Source: Squalus acanthias
Taxonomy: Eukaryota
Assembly: GCA_030390025.1 (NCBI GenBank)
Contig: CM059432.1
Coordinates: 19,346,001-19,410,000, forward strand
Length of the DNA: 64,000 nt
Direction: 5' to 3'
Under the pieces are notes generated by a model that searched no databases, was not told the origin of the DNA, and saw nothing but the letters and a program-made list of their open reading frames with translations. The position numbers and the translations under genes are program-made. Shown here in pieces: positions 18,770-44,625 of the stretch (position 1 is its first letter; each line of letters opens with the position of its first letter).

Positions 18770-20168
18770 GGGTCAGAAATTGTAATCCTGACTGTCAATG
18801 GGTAAAGTCATAATTGAGATAAATTTGATGGCGAGCACAGAGGAAGAAGTGTGTGTTGAGAGCATCGGCAGCTTGTCATGCAAAGTGTGTGGAGTATGGG
18901 ACAAGTGAGAAGACAGAAGGAGGATTAGGTATGAAGAAACCATGCTAAGCATATCCTTCAGCATTACCAATGGCCACGACTTCTGCTCTGTCCCTTCCCA
19001 TTATTGCCAGCACCGTCTCCTCAATGAGGGAAAGGGTATGTAGATGTGCTGGTCCTCCACAGGTGGCAGTCTTCTGCCCCGTGTTATGCATCATCTTCTC
19101 CTGCAAGAAAGTGGGAAACGTTCAGTGTGGGTCTTGCACGATGTTTCGGCAATGTGGCTGCCACAGTTTAATAGCTGCCTCTGTGTGTGTGTGTGTGTGT
19201 GTGTGTGATGTGAGTAATGGGTGTGAAGTTTGTAATAGTGCTGAATGTGTGAGGATGAGGTGAAGAGTATTAATTGAAGTGTGCTGTAGTGATTGTACAG
19301 GTTATTGGGGGGTGGGAGTGCTGTGAATTCAGCATGATTGTAGCAGATTGCAGGTTGTTGAGGGGGGAGTGCTGAGAATTCAGCAGTGATTGTAGCAGAT
19401 TACAGGTTGTTGAGGGGTGAGTGCTGTGAATTCAACAATGATTGTAGCAGATTGCAGGTTGCTGATGGGGGAGTACTGTGAATTCAACAATGATTGTAGC
19501 AGATTGCAGGTTGTTGAGGGGGGAGTACTGTGAATTCAGCGTGATCGTAGCAGATTGCAGGTTGTTGGGGGGGTGGGGGAAGTGCTGTGAATTCAGCAGT
19601 TAATGAGGCTATGAGTGGTGCAGCTGCTACGAGGTGCCATTTTAATATTTTCCTTACCTTGACAACTTTTGTCAGATCATTAAACTTCTTCTGGCACTGC
19701 ATCCATATCCTAGGAGCCATGCTCCCCGCATTCAGTTATTTGAAACCTCCTCCCACTGCCTGAGCATAACATGCCTGAAGGCTTCCTGCCCCTCCACCCG
19801 GGGAATGAGAATATCCTTCCTCCTCTCTACCTCCTGCCCCGAGGCCTCCAGTGCAGCATCTGAAACCCTTGGTGCCCGCTCTCCCTCTCACAGCTTCGGC
19901 CATTTCAGCTCCTAAACGAATTGTAATGGTTGGTGCAGCCACAATGCCCCTCCCCTTTAAGAGCTACTGGGTGCCTTTAAGTAGCATCGTGCACTCCCGC
20001 TATCAGACCCGCCTCCTCATTTGTGCAGCCAATGAACTGTTCAGGTAGCGCTTGCTGCACGTTGCCATTATTTTAATGAGCAAGCAGCACGGGGTTTTAC
20101 GAGCTGCCTGCATCGCTATCAATGGCCGTTAATCGTGCCTGTTGCCCTGCACTAATCAATTCCCCCCC
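18770..20168 (-). mobile_element. Degenerate Harbinger with Myb/SANT exon
   Basis: APRIWMQCQKKFNDLTKVVK followed by GTAAGG donor; end aattccccccc. Confidence 0.6.
19285..19600. repeat. ~51-52-bp minisatellite, about 6 copies
   Basis: agtgctgtgaattcagcatgattgtagcagattgcaggttgttgagggg units at 19317, 19368, 19420 and onward. Confidence 0.85.
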
Positions 20169-28208: not shown

Positions 28209-28941
28209 TATGATTCTAACTCTGTTCACGGGATACGGGACAGGATCAATGGCAGGTCAAAGTGACAGGCAGAGGTCATCTGGCAGTATCATTCCACCGC
28301 CAGAATTTCTAAGCTTATTAGATTTTACACCTCCACTGCAGCCCTTAAACTGCAGTGTTCAATGTCCTACTTATAAATCTGACGAGAATGAAATATCAAA
28401 ATCTTTTACAACATACATAGCTTGTTCATTAAGGAGGAATCCTCAAGGGGCCAGTGTTTCCATGCCTTCTATCCCTACCTTTATATTCTTTGTTCTGTTG
28501 TGTTTGTTGATGGGATTCTATTAGCTTTAGAAATTTTTGTTACCCTATGGCACAAAGCGTTGAACAATTTGAATGAAAAATACAACTCAATTCAGTCATA
28601 GAAAGAGTGTTCAAGGTGACGGTGACAAAGCTGGATAGAAAAGACACTAAAGTTGAAGCCGAGATCGTTCGGGAGTAATGCTACTTTGCGGGTAGCCACC
28701 ACCAATCCACATTTTTCATTTTTAATTACATTATTGCACAATGACTAAAACATCAATTGAGCCAATTATTAGGGATAGAATCGATTAAATAACCCAAGGT
28801 ACCACTCTCTGTAATAGTATGAGCCATAAGTAGATGTGCTTTGTTGCATTTGAAGCATTTTTAAATCTCTCCTGCCCTGAGTGACTAATCATTTACAATA
28901 ACTCTTCCGTGCATTTTCAGCTCAGTGTGAAACGGTTGGGC

Positions 28942-30615
28942 TGTAAAGTTTCGCAATTATCGCGATTCGAAATAACGAGATAGAAGCAGATTCGTTTGAT
29001 CAGTTTATTTAAACAAAATGCTGTCATGATTAAACAGGACACAGAAGCCTGTAAAATGGCCGCCGCGCATCGTGGCAGAAGTTTCCAGAAGTACAGTGGG
29101 CAGACAAGATGGCGTTCGAATAAACATTTTCGATAAGCACTGATAAAGACAGGATGCAACCTGTTTGCAATTATGACAATAACAAAAGATATGAGTGCTG
29201 GAATCGTTTTCCATGCACAAGTAAGGACCATTGTACTGGGCAATCGAAGGCCCATCCAGACACATCAATACGCAAATACCCTCACGGCTCTACAATGAGA
29301 GAGCCATTCTCGGGTGATTAAACAAGTATTCGGGGGCCCCCAAAACCCAGCCAGGGAGGCTCCTAGCCGGTTCGACAATGGGAAAAACATTAACGGGTAG
29401 TTGGCCAGTCTCAGGTGCTACCGAAACCCGTTAAAGACAAGAATCACCCCATGCTGGGAGTTTTGAGCGCCAATATTTCACAAAGGACAAACATTAAGAT
29501 TTGGGCGGGAGATAAGGGAACACAGCACTATAACTATAGACAACAAATGTCCATCGCTCTCTTACTCCCTTGATTCGATTCTTATTCGCTTGATTCGTGC
29601 TCTTGTTTCTCTGGACTGTTGACTCTGGACTTTTAGCCGCACTGGACGGTTATTCGAATGTTGGGTGGAGCTCAAACGGAACGAGCCGCCTCAACGAAGG
29701 CCGGTAACCGGGTGCACCATCCCGAGTGTCGGTAAACGGTGTTCTGGACCCGAAGGCCCGAAGAGACGAGACGAGACGAGATGAGAAGAGAAGAAGAAGA
29801 ATCCACGTGCCGCCGCGGTCAGTAAACCCCGACCGCGCCGAATTTATACGAACTCTATCAGTTACTGCACGAACTGGTCATAGACTCTTCCTCGAATTTT
29901 ATCGACAACCGGTGTCGATACAGGAAGACTCTTCTTTGAATTCTACCGGTAACTGGTGTCGGTCCAGGAAGACTCTTCTTTGAGTTCTACAGCCGGGCCC
30001 GAGCACTGTCGAGTTCTTCATGACAACGGGGAGCCCAGCCTGCTTGCAGCAGCAGCGAAAGTAAACAAGTGGGGTACAGAGACCCCTCAAAACACGTGAC
30101 AGTCAGGCGCCGCAGCGAAACGAGCCGAGCGCCTCACTTTAAAATTCTCCGAAGTATCATGAGTGGTGAGCATGTTTCACTATCCTACAAATCTAGATGT
30201 AGTGTAGGTATTGATAGGGGAGGGTGGTTTTATTAAGGATAAAGTATAATGTGTTCCCCTTTTTACGATGTGCCGTGCGTTCTTCATTACCATAGACCAA
30301 GCTTTATGAATATATGTATACTTGTACTCTCGTTAATTTGTGCCTATGACATGTACTTCATGATTTTAGACACTATGCAATAAAGATTTCCATTTCGTAC
30401 TATTCAACCGGGTCTATTTGAGTTTTTCTCTGCATTATTGCTCTCGCACCTAAGTCCAGTGTTAGAACCGTAAGGGCGAGTGGGTCGAACCACTCACAGG
30501 TGCTTATTGCAACAAGGCTGGCCGGAGACCAGAGCAAGCAATAGTATTGGGCAACGAAGGCCTAACCCCGCACCAGCATCGTCTGCGATACAAGCATGAC
30601 ACAGAACCCCTTACA
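28942..30615 (+). repeat. 5' LTR
   Basis: Direct repeat of 37947-39620; AATAAA at 30379-30384. Confidence 0.95.
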
Positions 30616-30619
30616 GGAA

Positions 30620-32420
30620 ATGGCGACCACGAAGGGACACTGGCAGCGAGAGAGTAATGTTTTAGACCCTGGTGTGAATAGGCGAAATGTGATGGATGAG
30701 AGGGTAGCCGACTATGTGTTTGGGAAGGTTAACTTAACCAAAAGGTGGATAAGTGACCTACTGATGGATAAGCGTCCGCTAGACGCAGCCATCAAATGGA
30801 CAGGCAGTAAAGAGCATAAGAAGTCGGTGGAGAAAGCGGTCTGGCTGATGTGCTACAAGAAGCAGGTCCAACTTTCTGACCAGGTCATTGTAGCACAGGC
30901 AGCTCAGATCAGGGAATTGGAAGTTGAGATGGAGGAAAAGGTCACGGGAGGACAGAAACTCATTGCATCCTTGAATGCATTACATCAGGAACGCCAGATA
31001 GTAGCCAACCACCATGAGGCTAAAATTGATTACCTAGAGTGTCAGGTCACGGAAGCAAAGTTAAACGAGGGTAGGATTAGAGAACAGTGTGCCCGACTAT
31101 GCTAACCAGATAAAAGCCCAGGAAGAAAGCTTGAAGGGAGTTAGGGCGGCATATAAGATGGCCCTCGAGGATAGGCATGAGGGAGCCGACCACAGTGTTT
31201 GCCAGAAGGAGATAGGGAACCTAAGAGAGGCCCTGAATAAGGCAAACGGCATGGTGTGCCTCATCAGCCCGTCAGCAAACCAGCTACAGGTGGGTGGGGA
31301 ATTCCCAAAATCCCTACCAGACAAAGCAGAGGAGGTATTTGCCACTGCGCCCTCCACGCCACCCAGCTATACGGCAACCTGGGTAAGGGAGGAAGTGGTG
31401 GAAATAGAGAAGGAGGTTCCCGAGGTAGGACAATCCCCAGAGGTAGAGTCGAAACCGGGACCGATGTGTCCGCTCCGAGGTCACAAGAGAGGCCCGAATG
31501 GGGAAAATGGGGAGGACGGGGATGTCCTGAACCAGCTTGTATTGCCTCACAGCTCACACCAGCTGAGAGCAATGATTAGCCATGTACGGAAGCTGTCCGA
31601 ATCAGACGACCCTTCCGTACACTTTAGGGAGGTAGAACAGACCGCAGCAATTAATGGCTGCGACGATGTGGAAAAGACCAAAATGTTGCTGTTCTCGTTA
31701 GATAGCTCGATCCTTCAGTGTCTCTCAGACGAGAGCAAGAGGGGAAATAAAACCTATGAGGAGTTAAGGGACGAGGTCCTAGAAGTGTTAGGGGCGGATG
31801 ACGAAGGTCCGTTCGTCAGATTGAGTCAAACCCTGCAGATGGAGGGAGAACCCCTGAAGGTTTTCGCCGACAGGCTGTGGCCAGTATACCAGCGTAGCTG
31901 CCCAGGTGCGCCAGCGCGCCACCACCTGGACGGTGCCGGTTTAACTCATTGGCTTAGGTGTTTAGTAGCCAACAGTTTGCCAGCCGTCAGGGAGCAGGCC
32001 AAAGCGTGGTTTGATCCCACTAACCCCGCCACAACAGAGGAGTCGGTCCTAAATCGACTCACGATAGGGTATCGGAACACTAGGAGCACGGGAGCGTGTC
32101 CCCTTAAGGGAAAGGTGCGTGAGGCACGGCCCGCAGCCCCGGCTCAAAAGGAGTGGCATCAGGAGGGAAACCGCGCCCCACAAGCCAGTGGTGCTTGTTA
32201 CGGGTGCGGGAAGACAGGTCACTGGCGTAAGAACTGTAGGAACCCCTGGAATGACTCCAGGGATAAAAATCCCGCAGCCCGAACCCAAGCGCCTGTCTCT
32301 GAGAGAAGAGCTGGTGTGCCTATCCATCCCGACGCGATCGAATCAATGTTAGGAGCCATGCGGTCTCTTATGATTTTGCACGGGGAGGTAGCAACAGCCC
32401 CATACAACCCAGACTTCTGA
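30620..32420 (+). CDS. gag: Gag polyprotein with a 1-nt frameshift near 31100
   Basis: ORFs 30596-31105 and 31089-32420; coiled coil, PPSY (31359-70), capsid-like QMEGEPLKVFADRL, CX2CX4HX4C knuckle (32196-32237). Confidence 0.85.
30621..30638 (+). promoter_or_regulatory. Primer binding site, tRNA-Arg(TCG)
   Basis: TGGCGACCACGAAGGGAC is complementary to ...GTCCCTTCGTGGTCG-CCA, the 3' end of a vertebrate tRNA-Arg(TCG) as recalled. Confidence 0.85.
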
Positions 32421-33500
32421 CTGGAACCGGTGCAGCCTGCCTACCTGTGTCCCCTTGAAAGACACGCACAGGAGGGGGTCTCCTGTAAGGAGGCCAGGTT
32501 AAAAGAGCAGGCCTTACGGGAGGAGAACGCCCGCTTAATGGGGAAAATAGATGGGCTAGAAGGGCAGCTTAGAGACATAAAGGCAGCCTACAGGGTAGCC
32601 AGGAGCAGGGAGTATGAGGATTTAAACCATGGGAGAAATCTGCAGCCTCCAGCAGGCGAGATTTCACAGAAGGCACAAGCAGGGGCGGTGGCCTGTCATA
32701 GGGGAGGGGCCAAACCTGCGAGTGGGGACTCTCAGCCCCGGGTAGGACCGCAGGGCACACAGACCGGTAAAGCAGCCTGCGTGAGGGGAGAGGACATTCT
32801 ATAAAAGTGTAGGATCTTTTCTTGGTGTTGGGATTCAGATGAGGAAGAGCTCGAGGAGCTCGACCAAGGTAGTGACCCGATCGGAGAGGTGCTGGGGTCG
32901 GAGGACGGAAGTTTCGTCCTCGACTCAAGCTCAGGGGAGATAGGGGCTGCGAGTGGAAATCCACACAGGGTGGAATCAGAAACTGCAGATCCCGAGCCCA
33001 GGGGGGCGGAGCTAGGGGAGACGGAGCCAGCGACTGTGGTAGGACCACAGGTCGTGACGGTGGAAGTCTCGATACCCGGTCCGTCGGCCCTGGAAGTCTT
33101 GCCCTTGGGGGAGGTAGGGATTGCGAGTGGAGGACCACATACTGGGCCAAGTAGGGTGGAACCAGAAGCTGCAAATCCCGAGTTCAGGGAGGCGGAGCCA
33201 GGGGAGACGGAGCCAGCGGCTGTGGTGGGACCACAGGCTGTGACGGTGGAAGTCTTGGTCCCTGGTCCGTCGGCCCTGGAAATCTTGCCCAATGTAGCCC
33301 TCCGTAGGTCAAGTCGGACACCCCAGCCCAGGAAGCCGTGGTCAAGTCCCCCGTACGCCCCCAGGCGTAAGTTCAAGGTCAAGGCAGCCCAGGGAGATCC
33401 CAGTCCCAGCGCAGCAGCGACAGGCTGCGGCAGATCAAAGGAAGGGGTCAGTGCCCTCCCACCACTGGGAAAAGCTCGTGGCAGCCTTCACAGAATTTAG
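32421..33500 (+). CDS. ORF-X, in frame with gag after TGA; one internal TAA (32802-04); non-enzymatic
   Basis: ORFs 32430-32804 and 32889-33500 share a frame and the gap between them is open; no D(T/S)G, YxDD or DDE motifs. Confidence 0.6.
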
Positions 33501-33767
33501 GTAGGCCGCCCTGGGAACGGGCGGCGCTGTACAGTATAAGTTTATAAGTTTATAAGTTTAAGTTTGTAAGTTTTGTAAGTTTGTAGTTTAATTTTAAAAG
33601 TAAATGGTAAAGTGATGGGAGTTTTAGTGATAGGAATTGAAAGTCTATCCAGCATACATGTCTTTTTACGTGAGACGAGGTCAAGGGACCCGCTCACCCT
33701 TCACAAAAGCCAGAGACTCTTGGGAGGCTGGCTATATCATTTTATCTGATCACAGGAACCAGGAAAG

Positions 33768-34913
33768 ATGGAAAGGATTCTGATAGTGCTCGCAACGATC
33801 GGATATGGATTGGCCTATCGGGGCCTCACCAAGGATGTCGTTGTGTTTGGTTGCTCCGGGGACACGGCCCCCATCGCGACGGATGGGACCGGGGAGCGAA
33901 AGGCTGAGGAGACCGCCACTTATTTCCACAAGGGAAGGTGGCCGGGATGGCTGGGAACAAATTCAACGGAATACTCCAGCGCATCCGGATTTGCTTACAA
34001 AGAGACTTCTTTACTGTGCCCCAGAGTGAGGATCATTGCACCCAGAATCAGCGTCACCGTCGGCAAAAGGATTTGTTTGACATGCAATGGGAAGGTCCCA
34101 ATGAGCCGATGGTGGTGGTTACGGAAGTTAAGCAAGACTATGAGAAATTCCTCGGTTGAGTGGGAGCGATTGGGTAACAATACCCATCGGACAATTACGG
34201 GGACTAACGGACAATTGAAAGTCTGTTGGGACAAATGGTGGGAACTGGATGAGGGAATATATGTTTGTATGTGGGGGTCGAAGTACGTTTGCCCCAAGGG
34301 TATATCCATATTTTTCGTACACCAGTGGCAGGATAACGGGAAAGGGATGAGGTGGGATGTCAGCACAAAGGGGTGCGGAGCTCCATTCACCCCGATCCCG
34401 GTAAACGCCACTGAACTCATCACACGCCCACGCAAGTCTCCGCCCACGATTCCGGTGGTTTTGGCTCAGGAGGAAGGGTGCCCTAAAACCACTAAGGGGC
34501 CCGGGAATGGTTTGGTACTGGTCCCAACAGACCAGATACTATTTCAAGGGGTACATTACGCGGTGGCTTCGGTGATTCTAAATCTCACCAAGATGCATTT
34601 ACCAGAGTGGTGTCCCAAAGAGACGGAACAATTGTACCAGGTCCTGTTGACAAACATGTTCAGACAATTCTACGAGTTTGATTTTGCAGAGATTGACAAA
34701 ACAAGCTTGTACACCACACCACACGAAGTTTTGGGTCAGGTGGGGAGACAGAGAAGGGGCATTGTGAACGATATGTTCACCGCCTTTAATACAGGAACAT
34801 CTGTGGTCAACGCTCTAGACAACGTGGAGCTGCAGACCCAGATCAATGTTTTAAAAACACAATTAAAAAGCATCCTCACAAGCGAAAACAAGGTAGTAGG
34901 GTCTGAGTTACAT
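33768..34913 (+). CDS. env: Env 5' part: signal peptide, Ig-like domain, furin site, fusion peptide, start of heptad repeat
   Basis: MERILIVLATIGYGLA; C...W...DEGIYVC; RQRR|GIVNDMFTAFNTGTSVVN; acceptor ttttatctgatcacag at 33740-55. Confidence 0.85.
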
Positions 34914-36349
34914 GAAACATAGAAACATAGAAACATAGAAAATAGGTACAGGAGTAGACCATTCGGTCCTTCGAGCCTGCACCGCCATTCAATGCGTTCA
35001 TGGCTGAACATGCTACCTCAGTACCCCATTCCTGCTTTCTCGCCATACCCCTTGATCCCCCTAGTTGTGAGTGTTATATCTAACTCCCTTTTGAATATAT
35101 TTAGCGAACTGGCCTCAACAACCTTCTGTGGAAGAGAATTCCATAGATTCACCACTCTCTGGGTGAAGAAGTTCCTCCTCAGTTCAGTCTTAAATGGCTT
35201 CCCCTTAATCCTTAGACTGTGACCCCTGGTTCTAGTTTTCCCTAACATTGGGAACATTCTGCCCACATCTAATTTGTCTAAACCAGTCAGGATTTTAAAT
35301 GTCTCTATAAGATCCCCCCTCATTCTTCTGAACTCCAGAGGATACAAGTTCAGTTGACCCAATCTTTCTTGATATGTCAGTCCGGCCATCCCAGGAATCA
35401 ATCTAGTGAACCTTCGCTGCACTCCCTCAATAGCAAGAATGTCCTTCCTTAAGTTAGGAGACCAAAACTGCGCACAATACTCCAGGTGTGGCCTCACCAA
35501 GGCCCTGTACAACTGCAGCATCACCTCCCTACTCCTGTACTCAAATCCCCTTGCTATGAAGGCCATCATTCCGTTTGCTTTCTTGACTGCCTGCTGCACT
35601 TGCATTCCCACCTTCAGTGACTGATGTACCATGACGCCCAGGTCTCGTTGCACCTCCCCTTTCCCTAATCTGCTACCATTCAGGTAATAGTCCGCCTCTC
35701 TATTTTTACCACCAAAGTGGATAACCTCACATTTATCCACATTGTACTTCATCTGCCATACATTTGCCCATTCACCCAACCTGTCCAAGTCACTCTGTAG
35801 CCTCCTAGCATCCTCCTCATTGTTCACACTGCCTCCCAATTTAGTGTCATCCGCAAATTTGGAGATATTACATTTAATCCCTTCGTCCAAATCATTAATA
35901 TATAATGTAAACAGCTGGGGTCCCAGCACCGAACCCTGCGGTACCCCGCTGGTCACTGCCTGCCATTCTGAAAAGTACCCATTTACTCCTACTCTTTGTT
36001 TCCTGTGTGCCAACCAGTTCTCAATCCACGTCAACACATTACCCCCAATCCCATGTGCTTTAACTTTGCTCACCAATCTCTTGTGTGGGACCTTGTCGAA
36101 GGCCTTCTGAAAGTCCAAATACACCACATCTACTGGTTCCCCCCTGTCCACCCTATTGGAAACATCCTCAAAAAATTCCAGAAGATTTGTCAAGCATGAT
36201 TTCCCTTTCACAAATCCATGCTGACTTGGACCTATCATGTCGCCACTTTCCAAATGGTCTGTTATGACATCTTTAATAATTGCTTCCATCATTTTACCCA
36301 CGACCGATGTCAGGCTGACCGGTCTATAATTCCCTGCTTTCTCCCTCCG
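34914..36349 (-). mobile_element. 5'-truncated CR1 LINE inserted antisense in env
   Basis: Intact 427-aa RT ORF (35018-36301; YLDFQKAFD, GVPQGSVLGP, KFADD); (TTTCTATG)n tail at 34914-34940. Confidence 0.95.
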
Positions 36350-37552
36350 GACCAGGCCATGACACTACACTTAAAAGAAATTATAGCAGAGCTGGAAAAG
36401 CATGCGAGAATGGTAAATGCCCTGATTAGGGAAGATCGGAATGCATCCGATCAAGCTGCGCAGAACAAGGTGTGCGTACTATACGGGGCGTGGTTACTGG
36501 GTGAGGGCCGCAGTAATTTGGAGGATTTAAAACAAGGTTTGGTCCCGTCCTGGATAAGTAACAAACACCTGCAGGCGCTCCACCCTTTTCAGAACGCATT
36601 AAGCCCGTGCCAGCTCAGGCTAGCCTCAGAGGCATACCCAGTCCCCGTGGACTGCGGACGGTCAAACCATACCATCATGGGTATAGTACTACGTATGCCG
36701 GTTTTGGGCGACACAGCAAAGCCCGCCCCGGTGTATCGGGTAGAGAACATTGGTGTCATTCAGGGGGGAGCCCACATTCGCTACGCAGCAGTCCCACCTT
36801 ACGTCATCCGCTGGGAGCAAACGATGACAGGTACCGACCTATCGGGTTGTCGTGGCCGGGGAGCACACATCATCCTGTGTCCCCAGCACTTGAATGCCTT
36901 TTTAACACCACAATGCGGGTTCAGAACGGCTGGCGCGAAGCCCATGAATTGCACCATGGAGGCAATGACCCAAGATCATGTGCCTCCGCAGGTGGCATAC
37001 ATAGGGGGTGGAACATATTGCGTTACCACTGCAGCGCAACACTACCAGCATGGAAACCACAGCCGGTGTCCGGTGAGTGACAGCAGTTTCTGTTTTAAAC
37101 CCAGGGCTGAAGTTCCAGTGGCACAACAGCGAATTGTCCCGATCCCTGAACCATCCACTGTTCACCTTACAGTAAAAGAGAATTTCACCGACTTGCAGCG
37201 ATTCATCGCGCATTTCAGATACATCATTCCCCCTCTCCCTGAACACCTCACCAAGCTTTTGAAAGCCATCATGGTATCACAGAAACATTTTTACACCCTG
37301 GAACAAAAGACTGTAGAAATAGGGACAGAAATTTTGGACATAGTAGTCCCACCGTGGTGGGACCTGTTCACCAATATTGAAGTTCCTTCATGGATCAGGA
37401 TAGCCTCCCACATTTTGGTTGTGTGCCAAGTAGTGATTGTAGTGTACCTACTGGTCGTACACTGCAAAAGAGGCAAACGCCTCACAAAGCAGGAGAACAC
37501 AGGAGAGTGGAGAGAACGTTACATGCGCGTGAACGAGGAAAGTACCGCGTAA
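36350..37552 (+). CDS. env: Env 3' part: heptad repeat, Cys-rich domain, TM anchor, cytoplasmic tail
   Basis: DQAMTLHLKEIIAEL...; many Cys; TM IASHILVVCQVVIVVYLLVV followed by a basic tail; rejoins the 5' part in frame. Confidence 0.85.
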   Translation, partial: DQAMTLHLKEIIAELEKHARMVNALIREDRNASDQAAQNKVCVLYGAWLLGEGRSNLEDLKQGLVPSWISNKHLQALHPFQNALSPCQLRLASEAYPVPVDCGRSNHTIMGIVLRMPVLGDTAKPAPVYRVENIGVIQGGAHIRYAAVPPYVIRWEQTMTGTDLSGCRGRGAHIILCPQHLNAFLTPQCGFRTAGAKPMNCTMEAMTQDHVPPQVAYIGGGTYCVTTAAQHYQHGNHSRCPVSDSSFCFKPRAEVPVAQQRIVPIPEPSTVHLTVKENFTDLQRFIAHFRYIIPPLPEHLTKLLKAIMVSQKHFYTLEQKTVEIGTEILDIVVPPWWDLFTNIEVPSWIRIASHILVVCQVVIVVYLLVVHCKRGKRLTKQENTGEWRERYMRVNEESTA

Positions 37553-37934
37553 ACGGCCAGGATGACACCGCTCCATTTTACCATGTGTGTTTTTGTAATT
37601 GATTGTTAGTTATGAAGATGTGTAACTAAGTTTGGAACTTTGTATTTTTAAAATGGTTGTTTGATTATTTTTCCTTGTATAATAAAAACGTGCATATACA
37701 GGTGGTGCGAGAGGCATCGGCCTGTTGCACCTGGAAGACGTATACGCAATGTAAGTTTAAAGGCAATACTGCCTACGTTTTGTCCAAGGCCAAGCAATGT
37801 AATTTCCCTGGGAAATGAGGACGGCATGGAGGCCATAGATAGTTTAAGTTAAGGGAGTGTTTGGATGTGGAGAATCGGGATAATTTTGCTCACCACCACA
37901 TTTAATTGATACGATAAGCGGAGTTATTCGCATC

Positions 37935-37946
37935 AACAGGAGGGAC
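37935..37946 (+). promoter_or_regulatory. Polypurine tract
   Basis: AACAGGAGGGAC immediately before the 3' LTR. Confidence 0.75.
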
Positions 37947-39620
37947 TGTAAAGTTTCGCAATTATCGCGATTCGAAATAATGAGATAGAAGCAGATTCGT
38001 TTGATCAGTTTATTTAAACGAAATGCTGTCATGATTAAACAGGACACAGAAGCCTGTAAAATGGCCGCCGCGCATCGTGGCAGAAGTTTCCAGAAGTACA
38101 GTGGGCAGACAAGATGGCGTTCGAATAAACATTTTCGATAAGCACTGATAAAGACAGGATGCAACCTGTTTGCATTTGTGACAATAACAAAAGATATGAG
38201 TGCTGGAATCGTTTTCCATGCACAAGTAAAGACCATTGTACTGGGCAATCGAAGACCCATCCAGACACATCAATACGCAAATACCCTCACGGCTCTACAA
38301 TGAGAGAGCCATTCTCGGGTGATTAAACAAGTATTCGGGGGCCCCCAAAACCCAGCCAGGGAGGCTCCGAGCCGGTTCGACAATGGGAAAAACATTAACG
38401 GGTAGTTGGCCAGTCTCAGGTGCTACCGAAACCCGTTAAAGACAAGAATCACCCCATGCTGGGAGTTTTGAGCGCCAATATTTCACAAAGGACAAACATT
38501 AAGATTTGGGCGGGAGATAAGGGAACACAGCACTATAACTATAGACAACAGATGTCCATCGCTCTCTTACTCCCTTGATTCGATTCTTATTCGCTTGATT
38601 CGTGCTCTTGTTTCTCTGGACTGTTGACTCTGGACTTTTAGCCGCACTGGACGGTTATTCGAATGTTGGGTGGAGCTCAAACGGAACGAGCCGCCTCGAC
38701 GAAGGCCGGTAACCGGGTGCACCATCCCGAGTGTCGGTAAACGGTGTTCTGGACCCGAAGGCCCGAAGAGACGAGACGAGACGAGATGAGAAGCGAAGAA
38801 GAAGAATCCACGTGCCGCCGCGGTCAGTAAACCCCGACCGCGCCGAATTTATACGAACTCTATCAGTTACTGCACGAACTGGTCATAGACTCTTCCTTGA
38901 ATTTTATCGACAACCGGTGTCGATACAGGAAGACTCTTCTTTGAATTCTACCGGTAACTGGTGTCGGTCCAGGAAGACTCTTCTTTGAGTTCTACAGCCG
39001 GGCCCGAGCACTGGCGAGTTCTTCATGACAACGGGGAGCCCAGCCTGCTTGCAGCAGCAGCGAAAGTAAACAAGTGGGGTACAGAGACCCCTCAAAACAC
39101 ATGACAGTCAGGCGCCGCAGCGAAACGAGCCGAGCGCCTCACTTTAAAATTCTCCGAAGTATCACGACTGGTGAGCATGTTTCCCGATCCTACAAATCTA
39201 GATGTAGTGTAGGTATTGATAGGGGAGGGTGGTTTTATTAAGGATAAAGTATAATGTGTTCCCCTTTTTACGATGTGCCGTGCGTTCTTCATTACCATAG
39301 ACCAAGCTTTATGAATATATGTATACTTGTACTCTCGTTAATTTGTGCCTATGACATGTACTTCATGATTTTAGACACTATGCAATAAAGATTTCCATTT
39401 CGTACTATTCAACCAGGTCTATTTGAGTTTTTCTCTGCATTATTGCTCTCGCACCTAAGTCCAGTGTTAGAACCGTAAGGGCGAGTGGGTCGAACCACTC
39501 ACAGGTGCTTATTGCAACAAGGCTGGCCGGAGACCAGAGCAAGCAATAGTATTGGGCAACGAAGGCCTAACCCCGCACCAGCACCGTCTGTGATACAAGC
39601 ACGACACAGAACCCCTTACA
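37947..39620 (+). repeat. 3' LTR
   Basis: About 21 substitutions relative to the 5' LTR by eye, with no indels. Confidence 0.95.
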
Positions 39621-40260
39621 GGGCTATGCACAACTATAAGGAGTCATTAACATTTACTGTGAATGCAATCTAAGAGAGACTTCAGGATTTGAAAGCAATA
39701 TGCGATTTTTAAAATCTAACTGCAGTGATTATGTCACAGAGTTGACTTAAAAGAAAAAAGAAAAATATTCAGAAATGGAAATTGCCCTCTTCATTCAATT
39801 GCATGCTAGAAGGGAAAACAGGTATTACACGTGTCTATTAAGGGATAATGGGGATTATTTTGGTCTATTTTTCGCTGGGACCTCTTAATCTCACATTTGA
39901 ACCGCTCCAATCAGGTTTCCACCCCTGCCACAGCACTGAAACGGCGTTATCAAAGTCACAAATGATGTTAAATTATCCCTCCTCATTCTTCTCGACCTGC
40001 CTGTAGCCTTTGACAGCGTTGACCATGCCATCCTCCTCCAAGGCTTTTCCTCCGTTGTCCAGCCGAGTGGGAGTGCCCTCGCCTGGTTCCATTCTTATCT
40101 TTCCAGTCGCAGCCAAAGAAACTTCCGCAATGGCTTCTCCTCCCGTTCCCGCACCATTACGTTTGGAGTCCACCGAGGATCTATCCTTGTCCCCCTCCTA
40201 TATCTTGTCTGCATGCTGCCCCTTGGCGACATCATCCGAAAACAAAGCATCAGATTCCAT

Positions 40261-42104: not shown

Positions 42105-44625
42105 TGTAAGATTTGGATCACAGGTCACACACAGATTACCCAAAGGGTCTTAGGAGTTGTAAGGCATTTTATTAAGGAGCGGCAGTTTAAGTTAAGTACA
42201 TCACGCAATCAAGATAAACATAGTAGGGAGGAAATGGCCGAGTGAGAGAACCATGGTTCACAAAAGAGGTTGAATGTCTAGTCAAGAGGAAAAAGGAAGC
42301 GTATGTAAGGATGAGAAAACAAGGTTCAGTTGGGTCGATTGAGGGGTACAAGGTAGCAAGGAATGAGCTAAAAAAAGAGCTTAGGAGAGCTAGGAGGGGG
42401 CATGAGAAGTCCTTGGCGGGTCGGATCAAGAAAAACCCCAAGGCTTTTTACTCTTATGTGAGAAATAAAAGAATGACCAGGGTGAAGGTAGGGCCGGTCA
42501 AGGACAGTAGTGGGAACTTGTGCATGGAGTCAGAAGAGATAGGAGAGGTGATGAATGAATACTTTTCGTCAGTGTTCACCGAGGAGAGGGGCCATGTTCT
42601 TGAGGATGAGAGTGTGATAAAGGTGGATAGGCTGGAGGTGGTAGATGTTCTGAGGGAAGATGTTTTAGCAATTTTGAAGAACCTGAGGGTCGATAAGTCC
42701 CCTGGGCCAGATGGGATATATCCTAGGATTCTTTGGGAGGCAAGGGAGGAGATTGCAGAGCCTCTGGCTTTGATCTTTGGGTCCTCACTGTCCACGGGGA
42801 TGTTGCCAGAGGACTGGAGAGTGGCGAATGTTGTTCCTCTCTTCAAGAAAGGAAATAGGAATGACCCTGGTAATTATAGGCCGGTTAGTCTTACTTCGGT
42901 GGTTGGTAAGATAATGGAAAAGGTCCTGAGGGATAGGATTTATGACCATTTGGAAAGGGGCAACTTAATCAGGGATAGTCAACACGGATTCGTGAAGGGT
43001 AAGTCTTGCCTAACAAATTTGATTGAATTCTTTGAGGAGGTAACTAAGTGTGTAGATGAAGGTAGAGCAGTTGATGTTGTATACATGGATTTTAGTAAGG
43101 CGTTTGATAAGGTTCCCCATGGTCGGCTCATGAAGAAAGTAAGGAGTTGTGGGATAGAGGGAAATTTGGCCGATTGGATAAGTAACTGGCTATCTCATAG
43201 AAGGCAGAGGGTGGTGGTGGATGGAACATTTTCGGACTGGAGACCAGTTACCAGCGGTGTGCCACAGGGGTCGGTGCTGGGTCCTCTGCTGTTTGTGATT
43301 TTTATCAATGACTTGGAGGAGGGGACTGAAGGGTGGATCAGTAAATTTGCTGATGACACCAAGATTGGTGGAGTAGTGGATGAGGTGGAGGGCAGTTGTA
43401 GGCTGCAAAGAGACATTGATAGGATGCAGAGCTGGGCCGAAAAATGGCAGATGGAATTTAACCCTGATAAGTGCGAGGTGATTCATTTTGGTAGGGCAAA
43501 TGTGAATAAGGATTACAGGGTCAACGGCAGGGTTCTGAGGAACGTGGAGGAGCAGAGGGATCTGGGGGTTCATATCCACAGATCTCTGAAGGTTGCCACT
43601 CAAGTGGATAGAGCAGTAAAGAAGGCCTATGGTGTGTTGGCGTTTATTAACAGAGGGTTTGAGTTTAAGAACCGTGAGGTTATGCTGCAACTGTACAGGA
43701 CCTTGGTGAGACCACATTTGGAATATTGTGTGCAGTTCTGGTCACCTCACTATAGGAAGGACGTGGAAGCATTGGAAAGAGTGCAAAGGAGATTTACCAG
43801 GATGCTGCCTGGTTTGGGGGGGAGGTCTTATGAGGAAAGATTGAGGGAGTTGGGGCTTTTCTCTTTAGAGCGGAGGAGGATGAGAGGCGACTTAATAGAG
43901 GTTTATAAGATGATGAGGGGGATAGATAGAGTGGATGTTCAGAGACTATTTCCTCGGGTAGAGACAGCTGTTACAAGGGGGCATAACTATAAGGTGCATG
44001 GGGGGAGATATAGAAGGGATGTCCGAGGTAGATTCTTTACTCAGAGAGTGGTTGGGGTGTGGAATGGACTGCCTGCTGTGATAGTGGAGTCGGACACTTT
44101 AGGAACTTTCAAGCGGTTATTGGATAAGCACATGGAGCACACCAGAGTGATAGGGAGTGTGATAGCTTGATCTTGGTCTCGGACAATGCTCGGCACAACA
44201 TCGAGGGCCGAAGGGCCTGTACTGTGCTGTACTGTTCTATGTTCTATGTTCTATGTTCTATAGTAGACATACGACCGTGACAAGCAGCTGGTATCGGTCC
44301 CGATCGGACAAATGGCTGACATGCGTGAACAGCTCTTCCCTTCCCTTCACCGTCTGTGCTAAAAGCTCTTTTGATATCTCTTTTACTCTCTTTTTAGGGG
44401 TGGGCCTAGGGTAGATTATCAAAGATACAGTCAACAACCTCTCTAGCACACAAACAGCAGACAGCTATTCTGGAAACAAGATCACCGCCACGGTGCAGAA
44501 TGTTATAACATCCGCAGGGAACCAAGAACATCAGCAAATTCTAAGCGTCCATCCAGTTATTCTAACACCAGTCTGAAGAGACTTTTTTGTCTCAAGTTAT
44601 TTCTTCCAATTCACGATTTCTTACA
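42105..44625 (-). mobile_element. Solo LTR (about 480 bp net) interrupted by CR1
   Basis: TGTAAGA...TCTTACA ends, CCCT/TCCT flanks, minus-strand AATAAA near 42170. Confidence 0.7.
42227..44259 (+). mobile_element. Young 5'-truncated CR1 LINE with open 642-aa RT ORF
   Basis: ORF 42242-44170; (TTCTATG)n tail; TSD ATAGTAG (42220-26, 44260-66). Confidence 0.95.

Follow-up and report, generated by a model that had tools for sequence, protein, structure and literature searches.

A 64-kb stretch of the Squalus acanthias genome (64,000 nucleotides, here called the window, meaning the whole stretch of DNA that was analyzed) contains a copy of a long terminal repeat (LTR) retrovirus at positions 28942-39620, with gag, a pol remnant and env in this order. 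The family to which this copy belongs is a young, many-copy endogenous LTR retrovirus. Its envelope protein (Env) is predicted to be an F-type (class Ib) fusogen with a predicted N-terminal immunoglobulin (Ig) module that is likely its receptor-binding head, and the element as a whole is likely an endogenous retrovirus (ERV) related to snakehead retrovirus (SnRV; class III, clade Huo). A probability of about 0.65 was assigned to this reading. Env is best read as an F-type fusogen that bears an attachment module open to exchange, in which we infer the function and the host origin of the module.

In the window copy, env is split by a long interspersed element (LINE). Both env pieces are open, the first from 33768 onward (frame 33750-34922) and the second in the frame ending at 37552, as an earlier note on this DNA had proposed. 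They match residues 1-382 (97.6% identity) and 384-783 (96.8%) of L002, a natural copy without the interruption. The layout given in that note (signal peptide, Ig segment, linker and transmembrane segment, TM) was retained, and its length of 782 aa was corrected to the 783 aa of L002.

All parts of Env lie on the plus strand. The start and a putative signal peptide are located at 33768-33818, with a hydropathy peak at aa 4-22, and the Ig-like domain (aa 84-185) at 34017-34322. A Pro/Thr-rich linker follows at 34380-34478, and relatives have similar linkers ahead of the core. The F2-like segment (34479-34757) opens with a conserved CP..GP..G motif and ends with the furin site, RQRR at 34746-34757, the site named in the earlier note and the sole R-x-K/R-R site in Env. 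A putative fusion peptide and the start of heptad repeat A (34758-34915) come directly after it and resemble the corresponding stretch of the published Env of lokiretroviruses (Loki) by eye. The remaining F1-like subunit (36350-37552) comprises a Cys-rich ectodomain, heptad repeat B, a single TM (~37400-37456, aa 734-752) and a short tail of ~30 aa.

The Env core (aa 238-783) is predicted with great confidence to be F-type. Furin site, fusion peptide, heptad repeat A, Cys-rich domains, heptad repeat B and TM are present in the class Ib order. The top ESM Atlas match for aa 232-760 was Fusion_gly F0 (PF00523; score 0.93, 202/256 features); clusters of Baculo_F and Gypsy env (PF12259, PF07253) ranked next. 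When a 54-row profile of the Env family was searched against 177,635 PDB sequences, the best matches were the foamy virus Env structures 8RM1 (E 0.0027) and 8RM0 (E 0.018), with an alignment over 160 positions and the cysteines in register. The paramyxo-type core expected in the earlier note was supported by both searches. An earlier 22-row profile gave no fusion-protein match better than E ~1, and the single env pieces yielded nothing significant against Pfam and PDB.

Neither a CX6CC motif nor an immunosuppressive domain (ISD)-type motif was found in Env, in agreement with the earlier note, and the sole CXXC (CLTC) lies within the Ig-like domain. A gamma-type Env was rejected on these two absences and on the 453-aa length of the post-cleavage part. 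Among 1.84 billion representatives, 51 matches to Env were obtained, some of them whole or partial Envs from sharks, frogs, eel and coelacanth; the closest named relatives came from skate and sawshark. Three shark gene models, P0037 (Heterodontus, fbxo15 isoform X3), P0002 and P0003, join Env pieces to F-box, Niban and zinc finger proteins, and these joins may be exonisation or annotation artefacts.

The N-terminal segment at aa 84-185 very likely adopts an Ig fold, as predicted from several sequence comparisons. The segment shows the Ig core pattern [LIV]xC-x9-17-W-x30-55-DxGxYxC, with the B-strand Cys106 (in LTC106), Trp117-119 (WWW) and DEGIYVC ending at Cys167; the two cysteines are 61 residues apart, which is a normal spacing, and both were retained in 23-24 of the 24 open copies. 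When the N-terminal 235 aa were shuffled 200,000 times, this pattern, composed after the sequence had been seen, came up in 5 cases. The ESM Atlas matches of the domain scored 0.88-0.90, and all named ones belonged to the Ig clan.

A second shark Env group (L040, L043, L047, L049, P0012) carries a module weakly alignable to that of the window group, and the two have an unusual W-x-x-[FW]W-x-x-x-x-G signature in common. HHalign between the two module groups gave E 0.004 and a probability of 8%, above 100/100 shuffles. A pooled profile of nine rows from both groups, with zero host sequences, retrieved Ig-superfamily (IgSF) chains as all 60 best of 131 matches. Against single domains, the values were E 9e-4 for pIgR D1 and 0.0015 for shark VNAR; the lower E-values for multi-domain chains are sums over repeats. 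The V/I-set-like segment suggested in the earlier note was recovered by the core pattern and by the pooled profile alike.

Alternatively, the segment might not be an Ig domain at all and might reflect a chance motif match in a Cys/Trp-rich viral surface domain. This is very improbable in view of the shuffle test, the concordant Pfam, PDB and Atlas matches and the pooled profile; in addition, one shark relative is named 'Ig-like domain-containing protein' in UniRef. What it has in its favor is a score below the Pfam cut-off, an Atlas score of only 0.90 and a negative comparison with host V exons.

A number of observations weigh against the proposed combination of an F-type core and an Ig head. 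The match to Pfam Ig_3 reached 16.5 bits at a cut-off of 30 (E 0.013), and the best PDB matches of the module, JAM-A and CRTAM, were weak (E 0.11-0.18), as was the single-family profile (E 0.11). The Atlas features shared by the Ig-like domain numbered 141-157, compared with 170 typical of true family members. The strong profile result hinges on the pooling of the window module with the second, only weakly alignable shark group. Compared with 30 host V-set exons, nearly all of antibody or T-cell receptor V type, the module scored 16.4, with a shuffle maximum of 19.0. Regarding the core, Pfam Fusion_gly fails to match Env, and genome scans with Fusion_gly and Baculo_F were empty, the controls of both scans giving no signal either. 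A single-sequence structure model, made for the 3' env piece, was too poor to use (predicted local distance difference test, pLDDT, 37). The fusion peptide and heptad repeat follow the furin site where the earlier note had placed them and turned out weaker than implied there: the fusion peptide is weakly hydrophobic without a hydropathy peak (only signal and TM exceed 1.2), and the heptad register is modest, with hydrophobic residues at 11 of 24-25 a/d positions. Lastly, a module is lacking in the published Loki Envs and in three relatives, so an F core can apparently do without it.

Selection on Env was evaluated in the 24 open copies. The ratio of nonsynonymous to synonymous polymorphism (pN/pS) was 0.09-0.18 in the Env core and 0.21 in the Ig-like domain; variants present in at least two copies gave 0.08-0.24 and singletons 0.19-0.67, all of these values being biased downward by the choice of open copies and derived from copy pairs that are not independent. 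The pattern is as expected if Env, the Ig-like domain included, was needed during spread.

The Ig-like module probably serves attachment, to judge from its position and its conservation. In the proposed mechanism, Env would trimerise and be cut by furin at RQRR, and after cleavage the Ig module would remain part of the surface subunit. By binding a cell-surface protein, the module would tether the particle and help F1 to refold. Modules, and likely receptor use with them, would be swapped by recombination in the linker region, and the Ig module itself would probably derive from a host IgSF gene acquired long ago.

The main rival on function is that the Ig-like domain is not the entry receptor-binder, but shields the core or acts on a host immune receptor, either as a decoy or by mimicking 'self', with attachment residing in the F core. 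The module-less Loki Envs and relatives would fit such a role, exchangeable surface domains also fit antigenic variation, and the best single-sequence PDB matches are adhesion or immune IgSF domains (JAM-A, CRTAM). Furthermore, Env-Dbi, an Env with an IgV domain derived from SIRP, is described as retaining the CD47-contact residues of SIRP (10.1101/2024.03.17.585361). Nevertheless, the Ig-like domain is under purifying rather than diversifying selection within the family and sits where receptor-binding modules sit on the surface subunit of gamma-type Envs and on class Ib fusogens, and a purely shielding or decoy role appears unlikely.

Evidence that the N-terminal position of Env is an exchangeable slot came from 18 Envs, which were cut where a conserved motif marks the beginning of the core and compared in their N-terminal parts. 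In eel, coelacanth and one further relative this part is only 19-22 aa long and holds no module. The remaining modules form several groups that are mutually non-alignable by BLAST: the window group, the second shark group, a frog pair, the V-type module of P0034, a Cys-rich shark pair and several singletons. The P0034 module gave weak matches to CEACAM, SLAM and TIGIT (E 0.25-1.5), and no Ig match was found for seven other excised modules against Pfam.

In the tree of Envs, P0034, which has a module, is sister to P0038, which has none (support 100/98). In the approximately unbiased (AU) test, a single clade of all Envs with Ig-like modules was rejected (p-AU 3e-44), as was the sisterhood of two frog Envs with related modules (p-AU 0.01); the tested groups were named after an earlier tree had been seen, and long branches are present. 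A single early gain with later losses and replacements would also fit the rejection of the single clade. The proviruses L060 and L061 differ only in the slot: in their DNA, a ~445-nt stretch that covers the env start and the module does not match, and the identity is 92.6% on one side of it and 93.6% on the other.

Two further observations concern related Envs. A second F-type Env family in the genome (L052-L063, L074) carries N-terminal modules that are Cys-rich and non-Ig. Within it, L052 is 90-92% identical to L060 and L061 in the Env core and just 70-72% identical in the integrase, which suggests that L052 is a recombinant. In the frog Mantella aurantiaca, a cluster represented by P0049 comprises at least 12 full-length 677-aa related Envs with an Ig-like module of their own and suggests another recent burst.

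Regarding the origin of the module, the chances that it was captured from a host are about even. No host donor was identified because the module did not rise above shuffles when compared with the 30 host V-set exons; none of the modules did so in HHalign comparisons with host V exons. The main rival to host capture is that the Ig-like fold is an old viral module, like the modified-IgV receptor-binding domain (RBD) of gammaretroviruses, spread by recombination among these retroviruses. It is in line with the lack of a close host donor, the matches being scattered over many IgSF families, and the occurrence of the W-x-x-[FW]W-x-x-x-x-G signature in two distant shark Env groups suggests a long residence in Env. 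The origin of RBD-C was also left open by Hotzel (10.1101/2024.03.17.585361). However, the shark module retains the canonical B-F cysteine pair and DxGxYxC, whereas viral RBD-C is described as lacking that disulfide (10.1101/2024.03.17.585361), and the different V-type module of the relative P0034 fits separate captures. An old viral origin, which concerns origin only and is compatible with a receptor-binding role, is regarded as possible and rather doubtful.

The lineage of the virus was assessed on the pol-bearing copies of the family, whose Pol was compared by eye with the alignments published by Wang & Han (PMC7947760 supplement). The reverse transcriptase (RT) motifs PTVA, LDISN.FWSI, LPQGFHNSP and QYVDD are as in the SnRV row, and the WP and PFGY motifs found in most Loki RT rows are missing. 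In a hand count over 258 RT columns, ~113 positions were identical with SnRV, ~89 with feline foamy virus and ~85 with Loki-Lch, while the ERV-L and gamma/epsilon rows were judged by motif alone. By eye, RNase H has SAQ.AEL, CT.YLA.W.RRG and KVKAH in common with SnRV, and the Loki-type motifs SSQ.AE and WKKV.GH were not seen in it.

Because the RT and RNase H motifs match SnRV and Loki was absent from the six chondrichthyan genomes searched by Wang & Han (0/6 positive; PMC7947760), the element was filed as probably SnRV-related. From the alignment comparison and the hand count, a relationship to SnRV rather than Loki is likely. Clade Huo, for which SnRV is the defining virus, has members in all vertebrate lineages (PMC6001957). 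The same RT motif is present, where it is readable, in further F-type Env families of this genome, and the Pols of three F-type Env families together with frog and coelacanth Pols form one clade (Shimodaira-Hasegawa-like approximate likelihood ratio test, SH-aLRT, 100) apart from Gypsy-type RTs. A scan of viral contigs with RT found no relative.

It was also considered that the element is a shark lokiretrovirus that acquired an Ig domain, in line with the label used in the earlier note. Points of likeness exist: the tether and integrase resemble Loki-Xtr by eye, the Env core, likewise by eye, shows the motifs of Loki Env in the same order (GP.xG start, R-x-K/R-R, G.IP.W, nvG), and a tether with a second RNase H is found in both, although every retrovirus has a dual RNase H and the trait is not specific. 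The closest named relative of Pol is labelled NYNRIN-like, and the Loki integrase is close to CGIN1, which we take to be the same gene as NYNRIN. Since RT and RNase H carry SnRV-type motifs in place of the Loki ones and the published chondrichthyan search was negative, this explanation is improbable and the lokiretrovirus label was not supported.

Two other assignments were rejected. A Ty3/Gypsy element was dismissed on the presence of the second RNase H and the separate RT clade. The foamy virus Gag is not known to have a CCHC knuckle and foamy Pol is made separately from Gag; a foamy virus proper was dismissed on the single TM, the CCHC in Gag and a pol that is in frame with gag across one UGA (7/7 copies). 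The Env of the shark element probably functions like a Loki or foamy Env, and the element is probably a member of neither group.

Compared with known systems, the shark Env combines traits described separately. Loki Env (PMC7947760) is likewise F-like, with signal peptide, R-x-K/R-R site, fusion peptide, coiled coil and TM. In 14 of the 15 published entries examined (of 23), the signal peptide leads directly to the core without an N-terminal module, and the remaining one is a fragment; an Ig domain already present in annotated Loki Envs, which the earlier note had raised as an objection, was thus not seen in them. With SnRV and the class III ERVs of clade Huo, the RT and RNase H motifs are shared (PMC7947760, PMC6001957, PMC12193657), whereas SnRV Env has a 136-residue tail and SnRV has accessory ORFs, in contrast to the ~30-aa tail of the shark Env. 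Other SnRV-related ERVs carry gamma-type Env (Chen et al., on anamniote gamma-type Env), and the Env of epsilonretroviruses is described as structurally distinct (Henzy & Johnson).

Foamy Env, solved as an F-like class Ib fusogen (8RM0/8RM1; PMC11468914), is the best solved-structure match and likewise adds a receptor-binding module to its core. In contrast to the shark Env, in which the module lies N-terminal to the F2-like part of a protein with one TM, the foamy RBD is non-Ig and is inserted upstream of the furin site in a two-TM protein (PMC11468914). Receptor-binding modules are added to the F core in foamy Env and coronavirus spike, while paramyxoviruses hold attachment in a separate protein (PMC11468914). 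Paramyxovirus and pneumovirus F, baculovirus F and errantivirus Env resemble the shark Env in Atlas features, with the Pfam sequence match missing.

The one precedent for host capture is Env-Dbi, in which a SIRP-derived IgV is placed on an avian gamma-type Env (Hotzel 2024, bioRxiv 10.1101/2024.03.17.585361). A canonical IgV (predicted in the shark Env) at the N-terminus of a retroviral Env and RBD exchange between retroviruses are common to both cases. However, Env-Dbi occurs in mammals, is an alpharetrovirus-like Env of the gamma type and has a donor gene that is clear, whereas the shark Env is an F-type fusogen in a cartilaginous fish with no recognisable donor. RBD exchange among gamma-type Envs was described in the same work, which in its available part mentions neither fish, sharks nor paramyxoviruses. 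A literature search, with subscription papers mostly outside its coverage, found no description of an Ig domain on an F-type retroviral Env, as the earlier note had presumed, nor of an F-type Env in SnRV-like ERVs.

Independent origins of Loki and canonical retroviral Env are preferred by Wang & Han (PMC9040795). An F-type Env combined with an SnRV-type Pol, with foamy Env as the nearest solved structure, points instead either to an F-type ancestor in common or to a transfer of env among deep lineages. A broader scheme is offered tentatively: the SnRV-related viruses of sharks, frogs, eel and coelacanth, Loki and foamy viruses may share an F-type fusogen that was the ancestral retroviral Env, with host Ig and other modules repeatedly captured and swapped in one N-terminal slot, and the recent shark family would preserve this system in dozens of open copies. 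Such a slot would add a second class of fusogen to RBD capture, which has so far been reported from Env of the gamma type, and would parallel the modular foamy Env and coronavirus spike. With many open recent copies available, domain structure and binding partner become directly testable.

The family was surveyed by searching the 3.7-Gb genome with the 5' env piece. At least 108 copies were found, all 95-100% identical to it (108 scored among 8131 candidates). Among 39 other copies that were fetched, 24 have an open 783-codon env and 25 are listed with a full-length frame. In eight other copies with both ends read, LTR divergence was 0.5-2.3%, and an exact 4-bp duplication was present in seven of them.

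Upstream regions were read for 16 copies, chosen partly for differing upstream DNA; 13 retain at least part of pol and three are pol-less like the window copy. The pol-less copies form a subfamily (window 32421-33500; L026, L027, L036) in which a duplicated piece of the gag coiled coil, joined to the C-terminal tail of Pol, has taken the place of pol, with env kept. The intact Pol is 1496 aa long and contains protease, RT, tether, RNase H and integrase. It ends in a 260-aa acidic Pro/Gly-rich tail (L021:9169-9960, Pol aa 1233-1496) with an internal repeat, a basic end and no Pfam match. The gag and pol frames are joined by a single UGA followed by CUAG in 7/7 copies (L021, L023, L025, L028, L030, L033, L034), which is presumably a readthrough context.

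The provirus in the window is broken, with a LINE in env and no pol. It is flanked by a 4-bp target-site duplication (left copy 28938-28941, identical bases at 39621-39624). The 5' LTR, TG...CA, is located at 28942-30615 and the 3' LTR, with a purine tract just before it, at 37947-39620; each is ~1674 bp long, and they differ by 1.25%. The primer-binding site (30621-30638) is complementary to the 3' end of host tRNA-Arg(TCG), and a variant in other copies matches a second host tRNA-Arg(TCG) type. SnRV likewise uses tRNA-Arg as primer. The apparent gag ATG overlaps this site (window 30620-30638), so that the first gag codons are the primer-binding site.

The gag gene (30620-32420) encodes an N-terminal coiled coil, a capsid-like region and a CCHC knuckle (zf-CCHC E 0.0015; PNMA E 0.18) and is frameshifted near 31065-31105. 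The pol remnant (32421-33500) consists of a duplicated gag coiled-coil piece and the acidic C-terminal Pol tail, with protease, RT, RNase H and integrase all missing. A putative env splice acceptor, a pyrimidine run followed by CACAG, lies at 33738-33755, and the CACAG is kept in 31/31 copies located by script. Contigs from four presumed-RNA runs cover env without an env splice joint and give no evidence either way. All these features are on the plus strand. The LINE, 5'-truncated and on the minus strand (approximate ends 34916-36348), has an RT frame at 35018-36364 (RVT_1 E 2e-34) and is presumably of CR1 type; it was not present in 19 other env copies compared.

Outside the provirus, the window contains a separate 647-codon LINE RT-like frame on the minus strand (42227-44170) and a 52-bp tandem repeat (19334-19590). 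Elsewhere in the genome (G000 C26, ~39.0-42.2 Mb), long tandem arrays with a period of ~1623 bp contain tRNA-Arg, with 424 exact pattern matches genome-wide.

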